Origin: Escherichia coli | Lineage (GTDB): Bacteria > Pseudomonadota > Gammaproteobacteria > Enterobacterales > Enterobacteriaceae | Length of the DNA stretch: 64,000 nucleotides | NCBI RefSeq assembly: GCF_036507355.1 | Contig: NZ_AP027877.1 | Strand: one strand, 5' to 3' | Shown here: positions 6,205-50,422 of the stretch, in pieces | Position numbering within the stretch: the first letter of the stretch is position 1 | How the letters are laid out: the number at the start of each line of letters is the position of its first letter | The notes under the pieces: generated by a model | Told to the model about the DNA's origin: nothing | The model's database searches: none | What the model saw: only the letters and a program-made list of their open reading frames with translations | Position numbers and translations under genes: made by a program

Positions 6205-7391
6205 CAGGTTTCCTCTGTCTCGGTTTCTTCCATTTCTTCGGGCACGTTTGAAATCTCTTTGAGCGCCATATTCAGTGGGGCAATAAAGGGATCTAACGCT
6301 TTTTCAAATGCCGTCAGGTTTACCAGTAGCCAGTCGATCATTTCAGGCCAGTTGGCTTCATCAAGGCTGATGGCCGGGCTGGCATAGGAAATTCGACACG
6401 ATTTTTTACCCGGCAGAGGTTCCCACTTAAGCGCATGGCCAAACGCGTTTTCAATTGCCTCTTTGCGTTCATGTAGCCAGTTAAAAGCAAAGGTATTGCT
6501 CTCTGCGGAAGCTTTGGCAATCCACAGCTCAACCCGAATCTCTTTTTTACTGAAAATCAGGTTATACGACACCGCGCTAATACCAGAGCCCGCACTGATC
6601 CAGTGATCGGTAGAGGGGCTGATATTGTTATATAAGTGGCAGGAGCTGGCTTTGAGGCGCTCCAGCATCTTTGTCCAGAAAGCTTTACGCATTAATTGGA
6701 CTGGCTTTACTCCGCCGCTGACGGATTGTTCTTCCGCCTCTTTTTGCGCCATACCGATCATGTAAGATTCTGCTTCCGGTGTGGGGATAACCTGACGGAT
6801 ATCAACGAATACATCGTCGTTGAACTTATAGGGTTTAACCTTAAAGCACTGTACCCGCAGACCAAATTGCATGAGCCACAGGGCAGTGTTGGTCACCTCT
6901 TTGCGAAAGTTGGCTGCGACCATGATGATTCGCTGTGTACGGCTCTGGTTGATTAAGGCTTCATCCAGCGTTTCATATTCGAGGAATTCAGCAAGCACCT
7001 CTGCCGCCGGGCGATTTTCCTCTGGGTCGTATTTATCCAGATAAAGCTGGAAGATCTGCAGAATTTGCTCTTTACGCAGGTTGGCGCAATACCCGGCATA
7101 TTTGAGCGCTTGCCAGACGACGTCGCGACCTGAATCATCGAGCTTATTCTCGATGATCACCAGATTGCCTTTTTTATCGATAGCCAGCAGGTCAAGGCGC
7201 TCTTTGGTGTCGTCAAAACCGGCGAACTCTTTCTGTATAATCAGTAGTTCATCGTCATTATCGCGAGTTAACGCTTGGGGATTCTGCGCCAGCCATTCCT
7301 GCAGATTGCCACGTTCGGTAAAACCAAGACTACTGAAAGAGACTTCCTGTAGGGAGTGTAAGCTGTTAGTCGGCGTATCAACTTTATACAT
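6204..7391 (-). CDS. PD-(D/E)xK (NucS/DUF91-like) nuclease-domain protein embedded between hsdS and hsdR (about 395 aa)
   Basis: Motif [21 protein letters not shown] resembles a restriction-endonuclease-fold D...ExK core. No Walker A, so not PrrC. Start and stop overlap hsdS and hsdR (translational coupling). Confidence 0.5.
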
Positions 7392-8769: not shown

Positions 8770-10468
8770 AACCCAGCCCCCCCAGATTCGCCTTAATCTG
8801 CGCTTCCAACTTCGCGCTCTCTTCAAGCTGATCTTTAAGCTGCGCCGTCAGGCGCGCCATCTTCTCGGCAAACGGTTCATCATCTTCAGCTTGCTCGGCG
8901 GCACCAACGTAGCGCCCAGGGGTCAGCACAAAGTCGTTTTTCTGGATATCCTCCAGCGTTGCTGAGAAGCAGAATCCGGCTTCGTCTTCGTAGTCTTTAT
9001 CCGTCTGCCAGGCGTGGAAGGTATCGGCAATTCTGGCGATATCTTCGCGGGTAAAGTCGCGCAACACGCGATCTTTCATATAACCAATCTGGCGCGCGTC
9101 GATAAACAGCACTTCACCTTTACGGTGCGCTTTGCCGTTGCCACCGGATTTATCTTTGGTCAGGAACCAGATACAGGCTGGGATTTGGGTGTTGGTAAAC
9201 AGTTGCCCTGGCAGCGCCACCATACATTCCACCAGATCCGCTTCAATCAGGTTGCGGCGGATCTCGCCTTCATTGTTAGTGTTGGAACTCATCGAACCGT
9301 TCGCCAGCAGCAGCGCCATCGAACCTTTTGGCGCGAGGTGGTGGATCATGTGCTGCATCCACGCAAAGTTGGCGTTGCCCTGCGGCGGTGTGCCGTATTT
9401 CCAGCGCACGTCGTTTTCCAGCTTCGCGTTCCACCACTCCTTCATGTTGAACGGCGGGTTTGCCATCACGAAGTCAGCGCGCAGATCCGGGTGCTGGTCG
9501 TCTAGCAGGGTGTCGGCGTTTTTGGCACCAAAGTTAAAGTCGATACCGCGGATCGCCATGTTCATCGCCGCCAGCTTCCAGGTGGTCGGATTCGACTCCT
9601 GGCCGTAAACGGAAATATTGCGCTTCTGCTCAGCGGCGTTGTAATTCTTTTCGCCCGCGTGCTCTTCAATGAAACGGTCGCTGGAAACGAAGAACCCGCC
9701 GGAACCCATTGCCGGGTCATACACCCGCCCGTTGTACGGTTGCAGCATTTCGACAATCAGGGTCACGATGCTTTTTGGCGTGTAGTACTGACCTCCCTGT
9801 TTACCTTCCGCCAGCGCGAATTGCCCCAGGAAATATTCGTAAACGTGGCCGAGAATATCTTTGCTCTTTAAGCTGAGTTTCTCGCCGTTATATTCCGGGT
9901 TGCTGAAGTTTGCGTCAGAGAAGGTATTAATCAGCCCGGTCAGCACCTCGTTACTCAGTTGATACTGGCTGATGCGATTCAGAATACCTTTCAGTTTCGG
10001 GTTGGTTTTTTCGATTTCATCCAGCGCGTTATCCACCAGCCAGGAGACAGAGCGCAGCGTCACATCCTTGCCGGTGGTTTCATCCACCCACAGCACGGTG
10101 CCGGTCGGCAACATGGCTTTGTTTTTCAGCGTGTCCCAGCGCGCGGCTTTTGGCACCCAGAAGATGTTCTTTTCGGTGTAGTAATCTTCAACTTCCAGCT
10201 CTTCCTGGATAGCCTGAGCGTATTCTTCGTCGGAACCGTAATCATCGCGCGACATGGCGTAGATGTTGTCGGGATTACCGACATCGCGGAACAGGGTCGT
10301 CAGCTCCTGCTGACGCGCCTCGAAGGCATCAGAAACATACTTCAGGAAGATTAGCCCCAGCACCACATGCTTGTAGTTGGCGGCATCCATATTGGCGCGC
10401 AGTTTGTCGGCGGCCTTCCAGAATTTGTTATCCAGCTCGTTCAGAAATAGCTGTTCAGCGTTGTTCAT
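8759..10468 (-). CDS. hsdM: Type I R-M DNA methyltransferase subunit HsdM (about 569 aa)
   Basis: N6-adenine methyltransferase catalytic motif NPPF (FVMANPPFNMKEW) and an AdoMet-binding region (VYDPAMGSGGFF); first gene of the operon. Confidence 0.85.
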   Translation of the reverse strand: MNNAEQLFLNELDNKFWKAADKLRANMDAANYKHVVLGLIFLKYVSDAFEARQQELTTLFRDVGNPDNIYAMSRDDYGSDEEYAQAIQEELEVEDYYTEKNIFWVPKAARWDTLKNKAMLPTGTVLWVDETTGKDVTLRSVSWLVDNALDEIEKTNPKLKGILNRISQYQLSNEVLTGLINTFSDANFSNPEYNGEKLSLKSKDILGHVYEYFLGQFALAEGKQGGQYYTPKSIVTLIVEMLQPYNGRVYDPAMGSGGFFVSSDRFIEEHAGEKNYNAAEQKRNISVYGQESNPTTWKLAAMNMAIRGIDFNFGAKNADTLLDDQHPDLRADFVMANPPFNMKEWWNAKLENDVRWKYGTPPQGNANFAWMQHMIHHLAPKGSMALLLANGSMSSNTNNEGEIRRNLIEADLVECMVALPGQLFTNTQIPACIWFLTKDKSGGNGKAHRKGEVLFIDARQIGYMKDRVLRDFTREDIARIADTFHAWQTDKDYEDEAGFCFSATLEDIQKNDFVLTPGRYVGAAEQAEDDEPFAEKMARLTAQLKDQLEESAKLEAQIKANLGGLGYEF

Positions 10469-41132: not shown

Positions 41133-41451
41133 GCCACCGTTCGGATGGCATCGTTCTGATGTCATCCGGCAATTTACTCAGCACTAATGTTTTTTAACTA
41201 CCTGTTATATTTTTCACCAATTTATGATGATTTTTCTTCGCTAATCGCGAACCAAACGCCGCTGGCTGGCTAATAAACAGACGTTATTTGATCACTCTAT
41301 TTCGCCGTTATTTATCCCTTTAATTCCCTTTTCTAAAATGCCTGACAGTTCGCAGAATGAGATTTCGATCATGCAGCTAGTGCGATCCTGAACTAAGGTT
41401 TTCTGATACTTGAATACCGTTTTATTCGGTTTCGCCTAAGGAGAATGATTG

Positions 41452-43149
41452 ATGAAATCCCCCGCACCTTCTCGCCCGCAAAAAATGGCGTTAATTCCAG
41501 CCTGCATCTTTTTGTGTTTCGCTGCGCTATCGGTGCAGGCAGAAGAAACACCGGTAACGCCACAGCCGCCTGATATTTTATTAGGGCCGCTGTTTAATGA
41601 TGTGCAAAACGCCAAGCTTTTTCCGGACCAAAAAACCTTTGCCGATGCCGTGCCAAACAGCGATCCGCTGATGATCCTTGCTGATTATCGGATGCAGCAA
41701 AACCAGAGCGGATTTGATCTGCGCCATTTCGTTAACGTCAATTTCACCCTGCCGAAAGAGGGAGAGAAATATGTTCCGCCAGAGGGACAGTCACTGCGCG
41801 AACATATTGACGGACTTTGGCCGGTATTAACGCGTTCTACCGAAAACACCGAAAAATGGGATTCTCTGTTACCGCTGCCGGAACCTTATGTCGTGCCAGG
41901 CGGACGTTTTCGCGAGGTATATTACTGGGACAGTTACTTCACCATGTTAGGACTTACCGAAAGCGGTCACTGGGATAAAGTCGCGGATATGGTGGCCAAT
42001 TTTGCTCATGAAATAGACACTTACGGTCATATTCCCAACGGCAACCGCAGTTACTATTTAAGCCGCTCGCAGCCGCCCTTCTTTGCCCTGATGGTAGAGT
42101 TACTGGCGCAGCATGAAGGCGATGCCGCATTGAAGCAATACCTGCCGCAAATGCAAAAAGAATATGCTTACTGGATGGACGGTGTTGAAAACCTGCAAGC
42201 CGGACAACAGGAAAAACGCGTTGTAAAACTTCAGGATGGTACCCTTCTCAACCGCTACTGGGACGATCGCGATACGCCACGACCAGAGTCATGGGTGGAA
42301 GATATTGCCACCGCTAAAAGCAATCCGAATCGACCTGCCACTGAAATTTACCGCGACCTGCGCTCTGCTGCTGCGTCTGGCTGGGATTTCAGCTCGCGCT
42401 GGATGGACAATCCGCAGCAACTAAATACCTTACGCACCACCAGCATCGTACCGGTCGATCTGAACAGCCTGATGTTTAAAATGGAAAAAATCCTCGCCCG
42501 CGCCAGCAAAGCTGCCGGAGATAACGCGATGGCAAACCAGTACGAAACGCTGGCAAATGCCCGTCAAAAAGGGATCGAAAAATACCTGTGGAACGATCAA
42601 CAAGGCTGGTATGCCGATTACGACCTGAAAAGTCATAAAGTGCGCAATCAGTTAACCGCGGCCGCCCTGTTCCCGCTGTACGTCAATGCGGCAGCGAAAG
42701 ATCGCGCCAACAAAATGGCGACGGCGACGAAAACACATCTGCTGCAACCCGGCGGCCTGAACACCACGTCGGTGAAAAGTGGGCAACAATGGGATGCGCC
42801 AAATGGCTGGGCACCGTTACAGTGGGTCGCGACAGCAGGATTACAAAACTACGGGCAAAAAGAGGTGGCGATGGACATTAGCTGGCACTTCCTGACCAAT
42901 GTTCAGCACACCTATGACCGGGAGAAAAAGCTGGTGGAAAAATATGATGTCAGCACCACCGGAACGGGGGGCGGCGGTGGCGAATATCCATTACAGGATG
43001 GCTTTGGCTGGACCAATGGCGTGACGCTGAAAATGCTGGATTTGATCTGCCCGAAAGAGCAACCGTGTGACAATGTTCCGGCGACGCGTCCACTCAGTGA
43101 ATCAACAACACAGCCGGTAAAACAAAAAGAGGCGGAACCTACGCCTTAA
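41452..43149 (+). CDS. treA: Periplasmic trehalase TreA
   Basis: Signal peptide plus glycoside hydrolase family 37 sequence (…[15 protein letters not shown]…); AAGGAGAA RBS upstream. Confidence 0.9.
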
Positions 43150-43178: not shown

Positions 43179-43219
43179 GCAATGCCATTATGTGCATAAA
43201 ATTGGCATTGCTCTTTTTT
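43179..43219 (+). terminator. Candidate rho-independent terminator downstream of treA
   Basis: Inverted repeat GCAATGCCA ... TGGCATTGC followed by CTCTTTTTT. Confidence 0.5.
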
Positions 43220-43491
43220 CGCCACGAAATGCCCCCCATTCTACGGTCTATGCCTTTATTTTCTTTTATCAGAGAAGATTTTAATTTTATTTTATCAATT
43301 TGTTAATCATTACACCTCTATTTATATTTTTCGCCACTCCGCCATTCTCCCTGACAATTTTCTTGTGGAACAAAGTGTTATTTAAGCAACAAGCAAATCA
43401 TTCTGTCTCTTTAGACAAATTTTGACATCAAACATGATTTTTTCGATATATATGTAAATATATAGCGGTTTTAATTATCAGGATATAACTT

Positions 43492-44514
43492 ATGTCACTA
43501 ACCAGACGGAGGTTTACACAGATTCTTGCGTCAACATTGTTCCTGCATCATCTGCCGTCCTTTGCACAATCAGTCAATTTCTGGGCCTCACTGACGCTTC
43601 CCGAAGCCCAAAACATTACACGCATCGTCAGCGCAGGCGCGCCCGCCGATTTGCTATTGCTGGCTGTCGCGCCAGAAAAAATGGTCGGTTTTTCCTCTTT
43701 TGATTTTGCCCGTCAGGCATTAATTCCATTGCCAGAGCACATTCGCCAGTTACCCAGGCTGGGACGACTCGCCGGGCGCGCCAGCACACTCTCGCTGGAA
43801 GGGCTTATGGCGTTACATCCCGATTTGGTCGTTGATTGCGGCAATACGGATGAAACCTGGATCTCCCAGGAACGGCAGGTTAGCGAACAGACACAAATAC
43901 CCTGGTTATTGCTTAACGGGAAACTGGAGCAATCAGCAGAACAGTTAACAACGCTTGGCAAAACGTTAGGCGAAGAGCATCGCGCCGCAGAACAAGCCAA
44001 TCTCGCCAGCCGCTTCGTTGGTGAAGCTCAGGCATTCGCCACCTCACCCGCCGCTAACCTCCGCTTTTATGCTGCGCGCGGTCCTCGAGGGCTGGAAACG
44101 GGCTTACAGGGTTCGTTGCATACCGAGGCGGCGGAATTATTAGGTTTGCACAACGTCGCGCAAATCGCCGATCGCCACGGCCTGACACAGGTTTCCATGG
44201 AAAATCTCCTGCGCTGGCAGCCGGATATTATTCTGGTTCAGGAGGCCGTTACTGCAGATTTTATTCGTCGTGATCCTCTCTGGCAGGGCGTGAAAGCCGT
44301 TGCGGAACAACGCATCTTATTTTTAAGTGGCTTGCCCTTTGGCTGGCTGGATGCCCCGCCGGGAATCAACCGTCTTCTGGGATTACGCAGACTTCACGCC
44401 TGGCTGGATCCCGCCATCAATCGCCAGTTTAAAAGTGACATGCAGCATTACGCCCAACTGTTCTGGCATTGTTCACTCAGTGACGCCGACTATCAAAAAT
44501 TGGTGGCGAGCTAA
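43492..44514 (+). CDS. Periplasmic substrate-binding protein of an iron-siderophore/cobalamin-type ABC importer (340 aa)
   Basis: Twin-arginine-like signal (MSLTRRRFTQIL...); first gene of a coupled binding-protein/permease/ATPase set. Confidence 0.6.
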   Translation: MSLTRRRFTQILASTLFLHHLPSFAQSVNFWASLTLPEAQNITRIVSAGAPADLLLLAVAPEKMVGFSSFDFARQALIPLPEHIRQLPRLGRLAGRASTLSLEGLMALHPDLVVDCGNTDETWISQERQVSEQTQIPWLLLNGKLEQSAEQLTTLGKTLGEEHRAAEQANLASRFVGEAQAFATSPAANLRFYAARGPRGLETGLQGSLHTEAAELLGLHNVAQIADRHGLTQVSMENLLRWQPDIILVQEAVTADFIRRDPLWQGVKAVAEQRILFLSGLPFGWLDAPPGINRLLGLRRLHAWLDPAINRQFKSDMQHYAQLFWHCSLSDADYQKLVAS

Positions 44515-45494
44515 TGAGAATCGTAAACGGATGTATTTTGCTGCTGGCAGCTATCAGTATCACTTTTGCCGCCGTAAGTGGGGCTTATCATCTCGATATG
44601 CAGCAACTGCTGGCGCTAATTCTTCGTCAAGAAAATGTTCCTGTGCAGGAACAAATTGTCTTCTGGCAAATCCGCGTGCCGCGTATTCTTGCTGCGCTGT
44701 TACTGGGCGCGGCGCTGGCAGAAGCCGGAACCACCTATCAGGGAATGTTGCGTAATCCCTTAGTTTCACCGGATATTTTAGGCGTCTCCGCCGGTGCCGG
44801 ACTTGGTGCCTGCACGGCAATTCTGTGGGGATTATCCATTGTTTACATCCAGCTGTACGCATTTTGCGGCGGGCTGATGGTGGTCGCGGGCGTCTGGTTG
44901 ATTACGCGTCGGGTGACCCGCCACGATCCGATCTTAACCCTGGTGCTGGTAGGCATTACGTTAGGAACGTTGTGCGGTGCGGGGATATCGCTAATTAAAA
45001 CGCTGGCCGATCCTTACACCCAGTTACCGTCAATTACCTTCTGGTTGCTGGGGGGACTGTCCACCGTGACCTTACGCGATCTCTGCTATGCTGCACCGAT
45101 CATTCTCATAGGCTCCTTGCCCCTGTTTTTTCTCCGCTGGCGCATGAATTTACTCACGCTTTCCGACGACGAAGCCCGTTCGCTGGGACTGAACGTGACG
45201 CGTCTGCGCTTTGGATTGATTGTCTGCGCCACACTAATCACCGCCAGTACGGTAGCAATAGCGGGCATAATTGGTTGGGTCGTCCTGGTCGTTCCGCACA
45301 TTGCCCGCTTGTTGACCGGTCATAACCATCAGCAGCTGTTGCCCATGGCAATGTGTACTGGCGCGATTCTGCTCCTGCTTACCGATACGCTGGCACGCAG
45401 CATTGGAACAACAGAAATCCCACTTGGCATTCTGACCGCTTTTGTTGGCGCACCGTTTTTCCTGTTTTTGTTGTTACGCGGAGGTCGCCAGTGA
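44514..45494 (+). CDS. ABC importer permease, FecCD/BtuC family (326 aa)
   Basis: Polytopic membrane protein with about nine hydrophobic helices; start overlaps the upstream stop. Confidence 0.65.
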   Translation: MRIVNGCILLLAAISITFAAVSGAYHLDMQQLLALILRQENVPVQEQIVFWQIRVPRILAALLLGAALAEAGTTYQGMLRNPLVSPDILGVSAGAGLGACTAILWGLSIVYIQLYAFCGGLMVVAGVWLITRRVTRHDPILTLVLVGITLGTLCGAGISLIKTLADPYTQLPSITFWLLGGLSTVTLRDLCYAAPIILIGSLPLFFLRWRMNLLTLSDDEARSLGLNVTRLRFGLIVCATLITASTVAIAGIIGWVVLVVPHIARLLTGHNHQQLLPMAMCTGAILLLLTDTLARSIGTTEIPLGILTAFVGAPFFLFLLLRGGRQ

Positions 45495-46249
45495 CTTTGC
45501 TTGCCGTCCGTCATGCGTCTCTGGGTTACTCCCGCCATCCAGTGCTACGCGACGTGTCCTTCACCCTGTCGCAAGGAACAATTTGTTGTCTGCTTGGCGC
45601 GAATGGTTGCGGCAAAACCACACTCATGCGCTCCATTCTTGGCGTTATACCGTTATTAAAAGACGAGATCTTACTGGATAGCCTCCCTGTGCAGACACTC
45701 AGCCATCGCCAGCGTGCGCAGGCTATTGCCTGGGTGCCGCAGGCGCACGACGGTATTTTTGCTTTTAGTGTGCTGGATATGGCGTTGATGGGCCTGGCCC
45801 CCACCATAGGCGCTTTTTCCGTTCCCGGTAAGCAAGAACGCCTGAAAGCCACGGAGCAACTGGAAAAGCTGGGCATTTTGCATCTGGCGACACGACGCTG
45901 GAATACGCTTAGCGGCGGTGAACGTCAGCTGGCTTTAATCGCCCGTGCACTCGTCCAGCAACCGCGCTTGTTGTTACTGGATGAGCCTGCCTCCAGCCTC
46001 GATTTCGGTCATCAGATCCAACTACTGGACACGCTGGCACAGCTCAAAAATAACGGCATGACAATGTTAATGTCGACTCATCATCCGCTCCATGCCAACG
46101 CCATTGCCGACAGCATTATCCAGGTAGAGCCAGATGGACGAGTAACACAAGGCTTACCGACCGAACAGTTAACAACAAACAAACTGGCTGCCCTGTATCG
46201 GGTTTCTGCCGACCAGATTCATCATCACCTCTCTGCAATTAGCCACTAA
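45491..46249 (+). CDS. ABC transporter ATP-binding protein
   Basis: Walker A GANGCGKTT, signature LSGGERQL, Walker B LLLLDEP; GTG start overlapping the permease stop (the track ORF extends upstream in frame). Confidence 0.75.
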   Translation: MTLLAVRHASLGYSRHPVLRDVSFTLSQGTICCLLGANGCGKTTLMRSILGVIPLLKDEILLDSLPVQTLSHRQRAQAIAWVPQAHDGIFAFSVLDMALMGLAPTIGAFSVPGKQERLKATEQLEKLGILHLATRRWNTLSGGERQLALIARALVQQPRLLLLDEPASSLDFGHQIQLLDTLAQLKNNGMTMLMSTHHPLHANAIADSIIQVEPDGRVTQGLPTEQLTTNKLAALYRVSADQIHHHLSAISH

Positions 46250-46258
46250 GGAAAAATC

Positions 46259-47071
46259 ATGCTCATTGATGATATTGATTTTGCAGACCTTTATCTGCAG
46301 CAACTCAAGCTGGCCCACCGCACAGAAAAAACGCCGGATCACTGGGATCAACGGGCGGAAAAAATGGCGGGAAATTGCGCCTCGCCTACGGACAGCTACC
46401 TGCAACAACTGATCGCTAAAATTGACCTACAAGGCGCTCAGACCTTATTCGATATGGGCTGCGGACCGGGTACCGTATCGCTGGCGCTGGCTGACAAACT
46501 CACGACGATTTATGGCGTTGATTACAGTCAGGGGATGCTGAACGTTGCCGCCCGTCGCGCCGCCGCGCTGAAGGCAGACAATGTCCACTGGATCCAGCGC
46601 GCCTGGGAAGAGGACTGGAGTGACCTGCCACGCTGCGATATTGCCGTGGCTTCCCGCTCCACTCTGGTGGCTGATATGCGCCAGGCAATGAGCAAACTGA
46701 ATAATCAGGCACGGCTTCGCGTCTATACGACTCATCTGGTCAGCACCTCGTTCGTCTCTCCAGCCATTCAGCGGGCGGCTGGTCGGGAAGTGATCGAATT
46801 ACCCAACTATATCTTTGCGCTCAACGTCCTGTATCAGATGGGAATTTATGCCCACGTTGATTTTATCCGTGGACAAAATTGCCAACAGGATAACAGCACC
46901 TGGGAACGTTTTGAGCAGAACGTCAGCTGGAGTCTTGGCGCGCTTAACGACGATGAGCGTGAGCGGTTATATCGCTGGTATCAACAACAAGATGCTCGTG
47001 CCCTCGCCCCTGCCAGCCGTGACTGGGCGCTCATCTGGTGGGATAGCGTACCGCAGGAGGCACTGCGATGA
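46259..47071 (+). CDS. Class I SAM-dependent methyltransferase-like protein (270 aa)
   Basis: Motif I LFDMGCGPGTVSLALA; sits inside the transporter cluster. Confidence 0.5.
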   Translation: MLIDDIDFADLYLQQLKLAHRTEKTPDHWDQRAEKMAGNCASPTDSYLQQLIAKIDLQGAQTLFDMGCGPGTVSLALADKLTTIYGVDYSQGMLNVAARRAAALKADNVHWIQRAWEEDWSDLPRCDIAVASRSTLVADMRQAMSKLNNQARLRVYTTHLVSTSFVSPAIQRAAGREVIELPNYIFALNVLYQMGIYAHVDFIRGQNCQQDNSTWERFEQNVSWSLGALNDDERERLYRWYQQQDARALAPASRDWALIWWDSVPQEALR

Positions 47072-47922
47072 TTTTCCTTTCTCAGGCACAAATCGATGCG
47101 TTACTTCTGGAAGATATCCAGGGCGGTGACCTGACCACGAGAGCATTAAATATTGGACACCAGCATGGCTATATAGAGTTTTTTCTCCGTCAGGGCGGCT
47201 GCGTCAGCGGCGTTTCTGTCGCGTGTAAGATGTTAACTACGCTGGGATTAACTATTGATGACGCGGTCAGCGACGGTTCACAAGCGAACGCGGGTCAACG
47301 GCTAATCCGTGCGCAGGGTAATGCCGCAGCACTTCATCAGGGATGGAAGGCAGTCCAGAATGTGCTGGAGTGGAGTTGCGGTGTTTCTGATTATCTCGCT
47401 CAAATGCTGGCGTTGCTTCGTGTACGTTATCCTGACGGCAATATCGCCTGCACCCGAAAAGCAATTCCGGGCACCCGCTTACTGGCCTCGCAGGCAATTC
47501 TGGCTGCCGGAGGACTGATTCATCGTGCCGGATGTGCGGAAACCATATTATTGTTTGCCAACCACCGCCATTTTCTTCATGACAATCAGGACTGGTCAGG
47601 CGCAATCAATCAGTTACGTCGCCACGCACCCGAGAAGAAAATTGTTGTTGAAGCCGACACGTCGAAAGAGGCAATCGCCGCGTTACGCGCGCAACCAGAC
47701 GTACTTCAGCTCGACAAATTTAGTCCGCAACAGGCAACTGAAATTGCGCAAATAGCGCCGTCGCTGGCTCCCCACTGCACGCTGGCTCTGACCGGCGGAA
47801 TTAATCTGACGACACTCAAAAATTACCTCGACTGCGGCATTCGCCTCTTTATTACCTCCGCGCCTTATTACGCGGCACCGGCTGACATTAAAGTCAGTCT
47901 GCAACCCGCAGCCTCTATTTAA
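47068..47922 (+). CDS. ModD-like protein (nicotinate-nucleotide pyrophosphorylase / QPRTase fold)
   Basis: N-terminal LLEDIQGGDLTTRAL matches the NadC/ModD family motif; start overlaps the upstream stop. Confidence 0.55.
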   Translation: MIFLSQAQIDALLLEDIQGGDLTTRALNIGHQHGYIEFFLRQGGCVSGVSVACKMLTTLGLTIDDAVSDGSQANAGQRLIRAQGNAAALHQGWKAVQNVLEWSCGVSDYLAQMLALLRVRYPDGNIACTRKAIPGTRLLASQAILAAGGLIHRAGCAETILLFANHRHFLHDNQDWSGAINQLRRHAPEKKIVVEADTSKEAIAALRAQPDVLQLDKFSPQQATEIAQIAPSLAPHCTLALTGGINLTTLKNYLDCGIRLFITSAPYYAAPADIKVSLQPAASI

Positions 47923-47926
47923 TTCT

Positions 47927-49918
47927 TTGTTAAACGGAATTTATTCTATGAGACTCAAAAAACATTATCTCTGCACAGCATTATCACTTGCCTTTACCCA
48001 GCAGGCCGTAGCGGCTCAGGAGAGCGACTCGCTGACCATATGGTCCAGTCCGGTATCATCGACGACGACCACCGTTCTCGATCAACCCACCATGAAGGCC
48101 CTGGATAAACAGAATGTCGCTCAGGCATTAAGTGTCGTCCCCGGCGTGGTGCTGCAAAAGTCAGGCAGCCGCAACGAAGAACAGGTAAAAGTTCGTGGCT
48201 TTGATAGTCGGCAGGTGCCGGTCTATTTCGACGGTGTGCCCATTTATGTTCCCTATGACGGCAACCTCGATCTGGCGCGGATTCTGACCAACAATCTGGG
48301 GGCAGTCGAAGTTTCCAAAGGGTATTCGTCGCTGCTTCAGGGGCCTAATCAGATGGGCGGAGCCATTAATATCACCACCCAGAAGCCAACAAAACCTCTG
48401 GAAGCAAGTCTGGGATATCGCCAGGGATGGAGCCGTAGCCAGGACAATGCCTACGATATGCATGCTTCATTTGCCGCCAGCAGCGATCTGGGGTATTTGC
48501 AAGTCAGCGGTAGCCAGCTAAAGCAGGATTTTCTCGGCCTGCCGCATGGTGTAAATAATGATATTGCAGGCAACCACGGCAAGATGATTAATTCATCGGC
48601 TGATGATAAACGCGGCATTGTGAAGCTCGGATTTACACCACGTGAAAACGATGAATACTCACTGACTTACATTAAGCAGGATGGTGAAAAAGATAACCCG
48701 CCATACAGCGGAAAAAGTGGTCAAAAATCACGCTACTGGCAGTGGCCAGAGTATGACAAAGAAAGTTTTTATTATCAGGGAACGACCCAACTAAACGATC
48801 GTTTTACCCTGAAAAGTCGGCTGTATCGCGACACCTTTGAAAATACGCTGATGATGTACAACTCGCTGGCTGATTTGAAAAATAAAAAAGGTAGCTACAG
48901 CCATTATTCCGATTACAGCGACGGTGCCGGATTACAACTGGCAGCCGATGTGCGTGAAAACGATCTGCTGTCGTTTGCCGTTAACTGGAAAGATGACGTA
49001 CACCGGGAAAAAGGTGCGCCGCACGCCGCTTACGATCGCTATGAAGATCGTACCTGGTCGCTCGCCAGTGAATATCAATGGGCTGCTGCTGATAATGTCG
49101 ATGTCGTGGCTGGAATCAGCTATGACTGGCGCGATAGCGTAGAAGCGAAAAAACACGAGAAAGATGGCAGCATCACCCATTATGACGACAACAATCAGTC
49201 AGCTTTTAACTGGCAAGTGATGGGGAAATACCACTTTGCCAATGAAGACACGCTGGCGCTTTCGTACTATGACCGCACACGCTTTCCGACGCTGAAAGAA
49301 CGCTATACCACATCCAAACCTGCGTATAACCAGATAGCGATTGTTAACCCGCAGCTCAAGCCGGAACGCGCTCGCGGGGTGGATTTAACCTGGAATGGTG
49401 CCTTCACGCGCGACTGGGGATTTGAGGTCAGCGTTTACTATAACCGGGTGAGTGATGCCATCCTCTCGCACAATATCGATGCCGATACCATTCAAAATCA
49501 GAACAGCGGCACGGTGGATTACAGCGGTCTGGATGCCGGTATTAAGGGGAAAATCAGCAATATACTGGATGTAGGATTGAGCTACGCCCTGATCCACGCT
49601 GACGCCAAACGCAAAGACATCGGCAAGATAACCGATCTGCCAACGCAGACAATGACCGCATGGATGACTCTCAAACCGTGGGAGCCGTTAAGCGTAACGC
49701 TGTCGGAAGAGGCGCGTTCCTCCAGCTACAGCAACAGTGACGGTTCACAAAAAGCCGCCGGTTTTGCGGTGACCCACATTCGAACCGATTACACCTTAGG
49801 TCATGGCTTCAGCGTCAATGCGTCGGTCAATAACCTGTTTGATACCCAATATGCCTACAGTGAAGGGTTTATTGAAGAAGGCCGCAATTTCTGGGCAGGT
49901 GTCGAGTATACGTTCTGA
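47927..49918 (+). CDS. TonB-dependent outer-membrane receptor (about 655-663 aa)
   Basis: Signal peptide, plug-domain-like N-terminus, long beta-rich body and terminal aromatic residue (...WAGVEYTF). Confidence 0.7.
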   Translation: MLNGIYSMRLKKHYLCTALSLAFTQQAVAAQESDSLTIWSSPVSSTTTTVLDQPTMKALDKQNVAQALSVVPGVVLQKSGSRNEEQVKVRGFDSRQVPVYFDGVPIYVPYDGNLDLARILTNNLGAVEVSKGYSSLLQGPNQMGGAINITTQKPTKPLEASLGYRQGWSRSQDNAYDMHASFAASSDLGYLQVSGSQLKQDFLGLPHGVNNDIAGNHGKMINSSADDKRGIVKLGFTPRENDEYSLTYIKQDGEKDNPPYSGKSGQKSRYWQWPEYDKESFYYQGTTQLNDRFTLKSRLYRDTFENTLMMYNSLADLKNKKGSYSHYSDYSDGAGLQLAADVRENDLLSFAVNWKDDVHREKGAPHAAYDRYEDRTWSLASEYQWAAADNVDVVAGISYDWRDSVEAKKHEKDGSITHYDDNNQSAFNWQVMGKYHFANEDTLALSYYDRTRFPTLKERYTTSKPAYNQIAIVNPQLKPERARGVDLTWNGAFTRDWGFEVSVYYNRVSDAILSHNIDADTIQNQNSGTVDYSGLDAGIKGKISNILDVGLSYALIHADAKRKDIGKITDLPTQTMTAWMTLKPWEPLSVTLSEEARSSSYSNSDGSQKAAGFAVTHIRTDYTLGHGFSVNASVNNLFDTQYAYSEGFIEEGRNFWAGVEYTF

Positions 49919-49967
49919 TGTGAAAGCGGATAGCGGCATCTGTATCGCTATCCGCCTTATGAAAATC

Positions 49968-50222
49968 TTATTCTCTTCGCAGGAGGCGGAATACGCCCAG
50001 AACGAGAATAGCTCCCACCACCGCCACCAGGAAGCTGTGCAAATTAAAACCGCTGATGGAGCCGCCAATGCCAAACATGGTCGCCAGCCAGCCGCCGACC
50101 ACCGCACCGACTATCCCGAGAATACAGGTCAGGAAAAATCCACCACCATCACGCCCCGGCATGATTAGCTTGGCGATAATGCCGGCTATCAGGCCAAAAA
50201 TAATCCAGGCAATAATTCCCAT
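49968..50222 (-). CDS. ymgE: Transglycosylase-associated (GlsB/YeaQ/YmgE family) small membrane protein
   Basis: MGIIAWIIFGLIAGIIAKLIMPGRDGGGFF... recognised as YmgE. Confidence 0.85.
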   Translation of the reverse strand: MGIIAWIIFGLIAGIIAKLIMPGRDGGGFFLTCILGIVGAVVGGWLATMFGIGGSISGFNLHSFLVAVVGAILVLGVFRLLRRE

Positions 50223-50422
50223 GTTCAGGCCCTCGTTTCGATGAATCGGACGCAAGAAATGCTTACGTCAACGCTCTAAGTATAGGCAAGGGCAGGATCG
50301 ATGCTGGGCGTTTGTCGGCTGATTTAAGAACAACATGTAAAAAATATTCACGCATTTGTATTAAGTTTTGTTAACTGTGACCGATAAACCAAAGACAGTT
50401 TGTCAGTCAGGAGTTTTTCCGC

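Follow-up and report, generated by a model that had tools for sequence, protein, structure and literature searches.

Which substrate does an enterobacterial operon serve when it combines a complete TonB-dependent import system with two cytoplasmic enzymes, and to which signal does it respond? The question is raised by the segment between treA and ymgE in a 64,000-nucleotide (nt) stretch of Escherichia coli DNA (contig NZ_AP027877.1; hereafter the window, in whose numbering positions are given), where six plus-strand open reading frames (ORFs) follow each other. An earlier note, made from the letters of this DNA, had read them as genes for a binding protein, a permease, an ATPase, a methyltransferase, a ModD-like protein and a TonB-dependent receptor, and had left the substrate open; the ORF list, together with domain searches against Pfam and NCBIfam, bears out this gene content. 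By analyzing the control region, the encoded proteins and the related loci in other species we arrived at a reading that we hold to be probable, namely, that the operon is a molybdate-responsive, TonB-dependent system for the acquisition of molybdenum (and possibly also of tungsten). The grounds for this reading are a ModE-type operator in front of the first gene, the conservation of that operator, an ATP-binding cassette (ABC) core that resembles MolBC, and the presence of ModD, which elsewhere is a companion of modABC.

The first gene (43492-44514) encodes a class III binding protein of 340 amino acids (Peripla_BP_2 in Pfam) and is followed by the genes for a MolB-like type II permease (44514-45494; FecCD, Pfam E-value 2e-86) and a MolC-like ABC ATPase (45491-46249; Pfam). 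For the latter the mechanical ORF begins at 45353, and we adopted the start that RefSeq annotates in a 99.3%-identical strain, which is the equivalent of 45491. Next come a class I S-adenosylmethionine-dependent methyltransferase ('yc73', 46259-47071), for which Pfam and NCBIfam returned generic matches only, and ModD (47068-47922), a protein with the fold of quinolinate phosphoribosyltransferase (QPRTase) that matches TIGR01334 with 501 bits (cut-off 179). The last gene (47948-49918) encodes a TonB-dependent outer-membrane receptor of 656 amino acids ('prrA') with plug and barrel domains; its mechanical ORF starts at a TTG at 47927, and the ATG annotated by RefSeq in the same 99.3%-identical strain corresponds to 47948. 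The six genes probably form a single transcription unit, because their junctions either overlap by 1-4 nt or leave gaps of 9-25 nt; the stop codon of the methyltransferase gene overlaps the start of modD.

The control region and its ModE-type operator

The spacer upstream of the binding-protein gene contains a palindromic ModE-type operator, CGATATATATGTAAATATATAGCG (43444..43467), which ends 24 nt before the ATG and agrees at 15 out of 15 positions with the pattern CGNTATAT-N7-TAYATANCG (i.e. CGnTATAT-N7-TAYATAnCG; boxes are scored out of 15 below). It is the sole match to the pattern in the window, even when one mismatch is allowed, where 0.01 would be expected on the basis of dinucleotide-preserving shuffles. 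The two classical high-affinity ModE operators, those of modA and moaA, were used as references and were taken from a K-12-like genome. The modA operator, CGTTATATTGTCGCCTACATAACG, has the same architecture and lies at a nearly equal distance from the start codon, with its end 22 nt away from the ATG of modA; the moaA site, CGCTATATACATGATTACATAGCG, fits the same pattern.

To establish how far the operator is conserved we collected relatives of the cluster, using a ModD protein alignment as the seed and one genome per species, which yielded 80 loci that together cover 1.43 Mb. These contain 76 boxes that score at least 14/15, as compared to 0-1 in block shuffles, and all but two of them (74/76) reside in the regulatory spacers of the cluster. 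The boxes are found in three kinds of position: 42 are located 5' of the binding-protein gene, usually 18-35 nt from its start; 25 lie in the longer spacer between the ModD and receptor genes in Proteus, Providencia, Morganella, Pectobacterium and one Serratia; and 7 precede the methyltransferase or ModD gene in loci that lack the transport genes. Seen from the side of the orthologous binding-protein gene, a box of at least 14/15 is present upstream in 42 of 54 loci, and most of the remainder have one of 13/15. About 50 species have the operator 5' of the cluster, and the association extends from the Enterobacterales to more distant Proteobacteria. In a metagenome-assembled genome (MAG) from the Enterobacterales (locus L069), boxes of 15/15 and 14/15 occur at 2272-2295 and 10336-10359, respectively, away from the six-gene cluster. 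The operator being present and conserved across species, we place the operon in the ModE regulon, with physical binding by ModE as a prediction.

An alignment of the upstream regions from 12 genera shows that, apart from the box, only a TTGAC hexamer some 20 nt further 5' is conserved. In the window this hexamer is a candidate -35 element, TTGACA (43422..43427, plus strand), and TTGAC(A/T) occurs about 20 nt 5' of the box in most of the 12 genera; the matching candidate -10 element, GATATA/TATATA (43445-43452, plus strand), falls within the left half of the operator. The position of the box suggests that ModE would repress the operon, as it does at modA, rather than activate it, because the box overlaps the sole plausible -10 element and leaves no room for a promoter downstream. 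A scan for consensus promoters and terminators returned counts that stay within shuffle expectation and is hence uninformative.

The earlier note had proposed to look for Fur boxes upstream of 43492, that is, for control by iron, and this expectation did not hold: the best Fur match in the AT-rich upstream spacer of the window reaches 13/19, and the best scores in the corresponding spacers of 53 orthologous loci average 11.6/19, as compared to 11.0 in shuffles; a ModE operator is found instead. Zur boxes that exceed shuffled controls were likewise absent from the upstream spacer and from the 53 orthologous spacers.

These observations bear directly on the reading that has prevailed for this locus, namely, that it serves the uptake of iron in the form of a siderophore, haem or ferric chelate, with ModD and the methyltransferase as mere passengers. 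The cluster was first named, as 'prrA-modD-yc73-fepC', on a pathogenicity island of strain CFT073, corresponds to OI#55/S-loop#83 (ECs1693-1699) of O157:H7, and has been 'proposed' for, or 'possibly' connected to, iron uptake (PMC1890555, PMC12928451). RefSeq follows suit with the product names 'iron ABC transporter substrate-binding protein/permease'. Iron would also agree with the sub-threshold matches of the receptor to subfamilies of siderophore and haem receptors, and with the fact that systems composed of Peripla_BP_2 and FecCD proteins mostly carry iron chelates. Nevertheless, we consider iron very improbable as the cargo: there is no Fur box and the mean over the 53 loci equals that of the shuffled controls, the sole conserved upstream control element is a ModE operator, and the ABC core resembles MolBC more closely than it does Fhu, Hmu, Btu or Fec (see below). 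Moreover, ModD and the methyltransferase are unlikely to be passengers, because their order is fixed and they are translationally coupled.

The transporter core and its companion enzymes

The transporter proteins were compared against all sequences in the PDB. In the case of the permease the best match is MolB of Haemophilus influenzae (HI1471, 2NQ2; 3.3e-63, 217 bits), followed by FhuB with 168 bits. In the case of the ATPase the best match is MolC (HI1470) with 122.6 bits, at practically the same score as a pgp-1 domain involved in multidrug resistance (122.5 bits), so that the discrimination is weak. The best solved relative of the binding protein is an uncharacterised protein from Sulfurospirillum (4PAG; 1e-26, template modelling (TM) score 0.8) and the second, which is the nearest one with a characterised function, is MolA (HI1472, 3PSA; 7.5e-8, TM score 0.67, for a model with a predicted local distance difference test (pLDDT) value of 87); in the structural comparison of this model MolA ranks only narrowly above binders of iron chelates, such that a ligand is not assignable from it. 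On the basis of these sequence comparisons the ABC core is closest to MolBC of Haemophilus.

The N-terminus of the binding protein (43492-43570) carries a twin-arginine signal, MSLTRRRFTQ. The arginine pair is found in 10 of the 12 aligned orthologues (in most of the enteric ones) and is absent from MolA, which suggests that the protein is exported in folded form via the twin-arginine translocation (Tat) pathway.

The MolBC-A system (HI1470/HI1471/HI1472) shares with our cluster the combination of a FecCD permease, an ATPase and a class III binding protein, as well as an adjacent modD (HI1473), which in H. influenzae Rd adjoins molABC (PMC3928620). Its substrate in H. influenzae is molybdate, which also represses molB; the study that reported this did not name the mediating factor (PMC4031551). 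A mol locus from a close relative within the Pasteurellaceae, of which the MolB is 96% identical to HI1471, contains the palindrome CTTTATATACTTTGGTATATAATG (L085, 7900-7923), a 13/15 box situated 35 nt 5' of molA, and this palindrome could be the missing link for the reported repression. In Rhizobium the mol genes are ordered likewise, and here too there is a 13/15 box. Neither the Pasteurellaceae nor the Rhizobium locus contains a receptor or a methyltransferase gene, which sets the examined mol loci apart from the cluster studied here.

The second known system with which the cluster can be compared is ModABC of E. coli. The likeness concerns the operator architecture described above, the predicted repression by ModE-molybdate, and ModD, which in other bacteria is often a companion of ModABC. 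In transporter class ModABC is unrelated to the cluster: it belongs to the type I importers and uses a binding protein of the ModA type (SBP_bac_11). It has neither an outer-membrane component nor a methyltransferase.

Outside the six-gene cluster modD was found in or beside operons of the modABC type (SBP_bac_11, BPD_transp_1, ABC_tran), i.e. in Cedecea, Actinobacillus and MAGs of an Alcaligenaceae and a Desulfurobacteriaceae species, and ModE boxes are present in the adjoining spacers of two of these four. Edwardsiella has the methyltransferase and ModD genes alone, with a box upstream. We rejected an identity of ModD as NadC: the NadC model yields 134 bits against a cut-off of 198, and ModD has Phe163 where the IKDNH motif has its lysine. 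This phenylalanine is invariant in ModD, and in an alignment with the QPRTase of Mycobacterium tuberculosis the residues R130/K131, H152/R153, E195 and D216 are retained.

The methyltransferase is generic both in sequence and in fold: the structural model has a pLDDT of 94, and its nearest neighbours are common small-molecule class I methyltransferases at TM scores of about 0.5-0.58, which point to no particular class of substrate. Its homologues in distant bacteria (36-41% identity) occupy the same type of cluster, and in one organism the methyltransferase is fused to the ABC ATPase. As judged from this gene context the methyltransferase is a conserved partner of the receptor-linked branch of Mol-type importers, and ModD is an extra component in the Enterobacterales. 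The idea of the earlier note that enzymes within a transporter operon point to uptake coupled to modification gains support from this partnership and from the fusion. A side observation concerns the contig of a distant cluster (locus L092, 6156-6812), on which the methyltransferase gene is followed by a gene for a second, TPMT-like methyltransferase and by a metallophosphatase gene; binding-protein and receptor genes were not seen on that contig.

The two enzymes could also be taken to indicate that the ModE-controlled system brings in, under molybdenum shortage, not the metal but an organic molecule (a pterin, a precursor related to the molybdenum cofactor or another N-heterocyclic acid, for instance), which ModD and the methyltransferase would then process. 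ModD keeps most of the residues with which QPRTase binds its substrate and phosphoribosyl pyrophosphate, which suggests that it is a genuine phosphoribosyltransferase with an aromatic acid as its substrate; the methyltransferase model resembles small-molecule enzymes; bulky organic molecules are typical cargo for TonB-dependent receptors and type II importers; and the binding protein is unlike MolA. On the other hand, ModD accompanies ModABC, which transports only the oxyanion, in many taxa, and therefore does not require an imported organic ligand. In addition, molybdate or tungstate is the cargo of the closest transporter with a characterised function (PMC4031551). A salvage pathway of such a kind is not known. 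We judge an organic cargo of this kind to be improbable.

The uptake and remodelling of a corrinoid of the vitamin B12 type was considered as well, given sub-threshold matches of the permease to BtuC models and a weak match of the methyltransferase (44 bits) to the model 'corrinoid protein-associated methyltransferase' (cut-off 180). The BtuC scores are lower than those for MolB, a ModE box takes the place of the expected control element, and between 42500 and 51000 there is no cobalamin riboswitch, nor any other RNA match to Rfam at E<=1. The absent riboswitch effectively rules this reading out, and we attach next to no probability to it.

The receptor and the nature of the cargo

The receptor has the features of a TonB-dependent transporter: an N-terminal plug (Pfam, 3e-21), a 22-strand barrel domain (4e-32) and an aromatic residue at the C-terminus (...EYTF). 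By eye, a TonB-box-like sequence, DSLTIWS, can be recognized after the signal peptide. An N-terminal signalling extension is absent, the scores remain below all specific NCBIfam cut-offs, and there is no close solved relative. In its plug-barrel receptor, Peripla_BP_2 protein, FecCD permease and ATPase the system parallels FhuA/FhuBCD, FecA/FecBCDE and BtuB/BtuFCD. It differs from these in that they are controlled by Fur, by a sigma/anti-sigma pair or by the B12 riboswitch, where here there is a ModE operator, and in that they have no embedded methyltransferase and ModD genes.

Orthologues of the receptor (30-35% identity) were recovered from distant clusters that have ModE boxes, and the substrate-binding protein (SBP), permease, ATPase and receptor of these clusters resemble their E. 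coli counterparts more closely than MolABC does. One such cluster comprises the genes for the SBP, FecCD, ABC, methyltransferase and receptor proteins, with a 14/15 box upstream. In a second, a 14/15 box lies 17 nt before the receptor gene, which is followed by genes for a DUF2478 protein, the SBP and the methyltransferase. The third, on a contig with a GC content of 70%, encodes the receptor, the SBP, FecCD and the ATPase::methyltransferase fusion, and divergent from these genes a modE-like gene (HTH_1 and TOBE domains); the spacer shared with the latter contains ModE-like palindromes. Loci L088 (4105-4944) and L089 (2000-2839) have a gene with DUF4213 and DUF364 domains (PF13938/PF04016) that is divergent from the SBP-FecCD-ABC-methyltransferase-receptor series and shares its ModE-box spacer; this gene might thus belong to the regulon as well.

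If the molybdenum reading is followed, the system would operate as follows. When molybdate in the cytoplasm is sufficient, ModE-molybdate would occupy the operator and block transcription, whereas molybdenum starvation would derepress the operon. The receptor would then use the energy supplied by TonB to move a molybdenum (or tungsten) species through the outer membrane, the Tat-exported binding protein would pass this species to the MolB/MolC-like type II importer, and the methyltransferase and ModD would act in the cytoplasm on the cargo or on its ligand. As a speculation, the preferred cargo would be complexed molybdenum rather than bare molybdate, for instance molybdate bound to a catecholate or another organic ligand; such a complex is the more plausible cargo because both a receptor and a cargo-proximal methyltransferase are present. 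Methylation of the ligand might, again speculatively, release Mo(VI), which is not freeable by reduction in the way that iron is.

The concept of uptake of molybdenum as a chelate has a parallel in Azotobacter vinelandii, which takes up scarce molybdenum as a complex with organic chelators, the catecholate 'molybdophores'. The parallel does not extend to the genes, as there are no genes for chelator biosynthesis in or next to the cluster, and a transporter of this gene family for molybdophore complexes was not found in the searchable literature. The most specific version of the molybdenum reading holds that the operon is the first recognisable enteric TonB-dependent pathway for molybdenum or tungsten, in which the metal arrives ligand-bound, the methyltransferase, in some species as part of the ATPase, modifies the ligand upon entry and so frees the metal, and ModD passes the latter on to cofactor synthesis. 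In this detailed form we regard it as a tentative possibility.

A simpler arrangement would be a plain importer of free molybdate or tungstate with low affinity, of the MolBC-A type, in which the receptor merely speeds the passage across the outer membrane and no chelate is involved. This arrangement is in line with the similarity to MolB and MolC, with a ModE-type control like that of the mol loci, and with the binding-protein motifs rich in Arg, Ser and Thr (GRLxGRASTLS, ARGxxGLETG), which could hold an oxyanion. Against it, a small oxyanion should be able to cross the outer membrane via porins, and no precedent is known for a free oxyanion being taken up with the help of TonB. The lack of a receptor and methyltransferase in the mol loci of Pasteurellaceae and Rhizobium marks the receptor-linked branch as a distinct subfamily, and a cargo-modifying enzyme that is fused to the ATPase is hard to explain with free oxyanion as the cargo. 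Whereas MolBC-A is an importer of the free oxyanion with low affinity, the TonB-dependent receptor would imply scavenging with high affinity. Taken as a whole, we find the plain importer rather unlikely, yet a serious alternative where the cargo is concerned.

Besides the published connection to iron, several observations weigh against the molybdenum reading. The homology to the Mol system is not close: the permease is 40% identical to MolB of Aggregatibacter, the ATPase 36% identical to MolC and the binding protein 27% identical to MolA over some 230 residues. Apart from the Tat signal, the receptor-linked binding proteins have conserved motifs of their own that are absent from MolA (GRLxGRASTLSLE, ARGxxGLETG and LPFGWLDxPPGINRLLG), and because of these motifs and the 27% identity the binding of molybdate is not inferable from homology. 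Nor does the reading assign a definite role to the methyltransferase or to ModD. As to the regulation, the consensus scan did not call the candidate promoter, of which the -10 element is imperfect, and ModE sites may also activate, as at moaA, which touches the position-based argument for repression. The cluster is dispensable, because 61% of the complete E. coli genomes lack it and because in O157:H7 strain F6321 (locus L001, 1366-12364) the methyltransferase gene has an internal stop, i.e. is a pseudogene. Finally, no precedent for a TonB-dependent receptor dedicated to molybdenum was found in the searchable literature, and no functional study of the cluster in the full texts that could be searched.

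What would have spoken against its view, according to the earlier note, is a widely conserved and well-characterised transporter locus with a known substrate. The cluster is indeed widely conserved, within the Enterobacterales, and it has a name; it is not well characterised, and the literature searches agree with the note in that the substrate lacks experimental demonstration. The gene cluster and its name are already known, and so are Mol-type importers, to which the ABC core belongs. When compared with the searchable papers (regulon databases lay outside this scope), the control by ModE, the link of the receptor and the methyltransferase to molybdenum, and the re-reading of an 'iron' locus appear to be new.

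To our knowledge, ModABC and non-specific routes of the sulfate type are the only recognised ways by which molybdenum enters E. coli. Molybdoenzymes (the nitrate, DMSO and TMAO reductases and the formate dehydrogenases) drive the anaerobic respiration of enterobacteria during gut inflammation and in the urinary tract. If the molybdenum reading is true, there would be a second, TonB-energised route, which is switched on under molybdenum starvation, and a locus that is counted as an iron-uptake virulence marker of extraintestinal pathogenic and enterohaemorrhagic E. coli would become a molybdenum-starvation locus. It would suggest that hosts or competitors can limit molybdenum, and would provide a handle on the function of ModD and on the physiological role of MolBC-type importers.

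Distribution and origin of the locus

The distribution across E. coli, which the earlier note had advised to compare, was determined by megablast: 2139 of 5426 complete genomes (39%) carry the cluster at a query coverage of at least 80%. The other complete genomes match solely from position 49895 of the window onwards (query position 6796). The statement in the earlier note that K-12 has only ycgY in this interval proved correct, in that ycgY is the only gene between treA and ymgE in the K-12-like genome. Beyond E. coli, all six genes are present in unchanged order in about 55 of the 80 loci, from genera that include Citrobacter, Raoultella, Enterobacter, Serratia, Pantoea, Erwinia, Pectobacterium, Affinibrenneria, Proteus, Providencia and Morganella, as well as in E. 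albertii and Klebsiella indica. Over the six-gene loci the protein identity drops to 44-60%.

On the left side of the variable segment (43092..43149, plus strand) the last ~57 nt of treA are unlike the K-12 allele: in the alignment with the K-12-like genome the identity extends to ...GACGCGTCC, is followed by divergence through the treA stop codon, and gives way to sequence without any relatedness. On the right side, as defined by alignment and megablast, the boundary coincides with the 3' end of the receptor gene (49895..49918, plus strand), where K-12-type genomes retain the final 24 nt, GCAGGTGTCGAGTATACGTTCTGA, including the stop codon, adjoining ycgY.

The earlier note had described the cluster as an islet, a term that finds no support if it is taken to mean an insertion. 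The cluster occupies the equivalent site between treA and ymgE/emtA in E. albertii, Citrobacter, Raoultella, Enterobacter and Intestinirhabdus, and an insertion is unlikely because of this shared site and because the receptor gene has left its last 24 nt behind in K-12. The GC content of the cluster (0.50-0.56) resembles that of the flanks, and neither integrase nor insertion sequence (IS) genes were detected within it (ORF list and Pfam); horizontal acquisition as an islet was rejected on all of these grounds. The cluster is probably ancestral at the treA/ymgE site, with K-12 representing the derived state, reached by deletion or replacement.

The plasmid collection provides no evidence of mobility either. 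Fourteen records labelled 'plasmid' match the query (43300-49960), all of them from E. coli and all non-mobilizable, and the nine that contain the full cluster, which range from 150 kb to 4.9 Mb, look like mislabelled pieces of chromosome. A 3.2-kb contig in a MAG of 'Collinsella sp.' (L005) encodes an ATPase, methyltransferase and ModD that are 98-99% identical to the E. coli proteins, most likely as a result of bin contamination. In O157:H7 F6321 treA contains a frameshift and an IS3 element interrupts ycgR, which points to decay of the neighbourhood in that lineage.

The cluster is flanked on the left by treA (41449-43149, plus strand) and on the right by ymgE (49968-50255, minus strand), both identified by Pfam. 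The spacer between treA and the first gene measures 342 nt and contains, by eye and outside the calls of the consensus scan, a putative intrinsic terminator, GCAATGCCA ... TGGCATTGC then TCTTTTTT (43179..43219, plus strand), which is a probable terminator of treA that would separate it from the operon. Between the convergent receptor and ymgE genes there is a hairpin with a 10-bp stem, GCGGATAGCG-N10-CGCTATCCGC (49926..49955), which was also recognized by eye, is kept in K-12-type genomes and probably functions as a bidirectional terminator.

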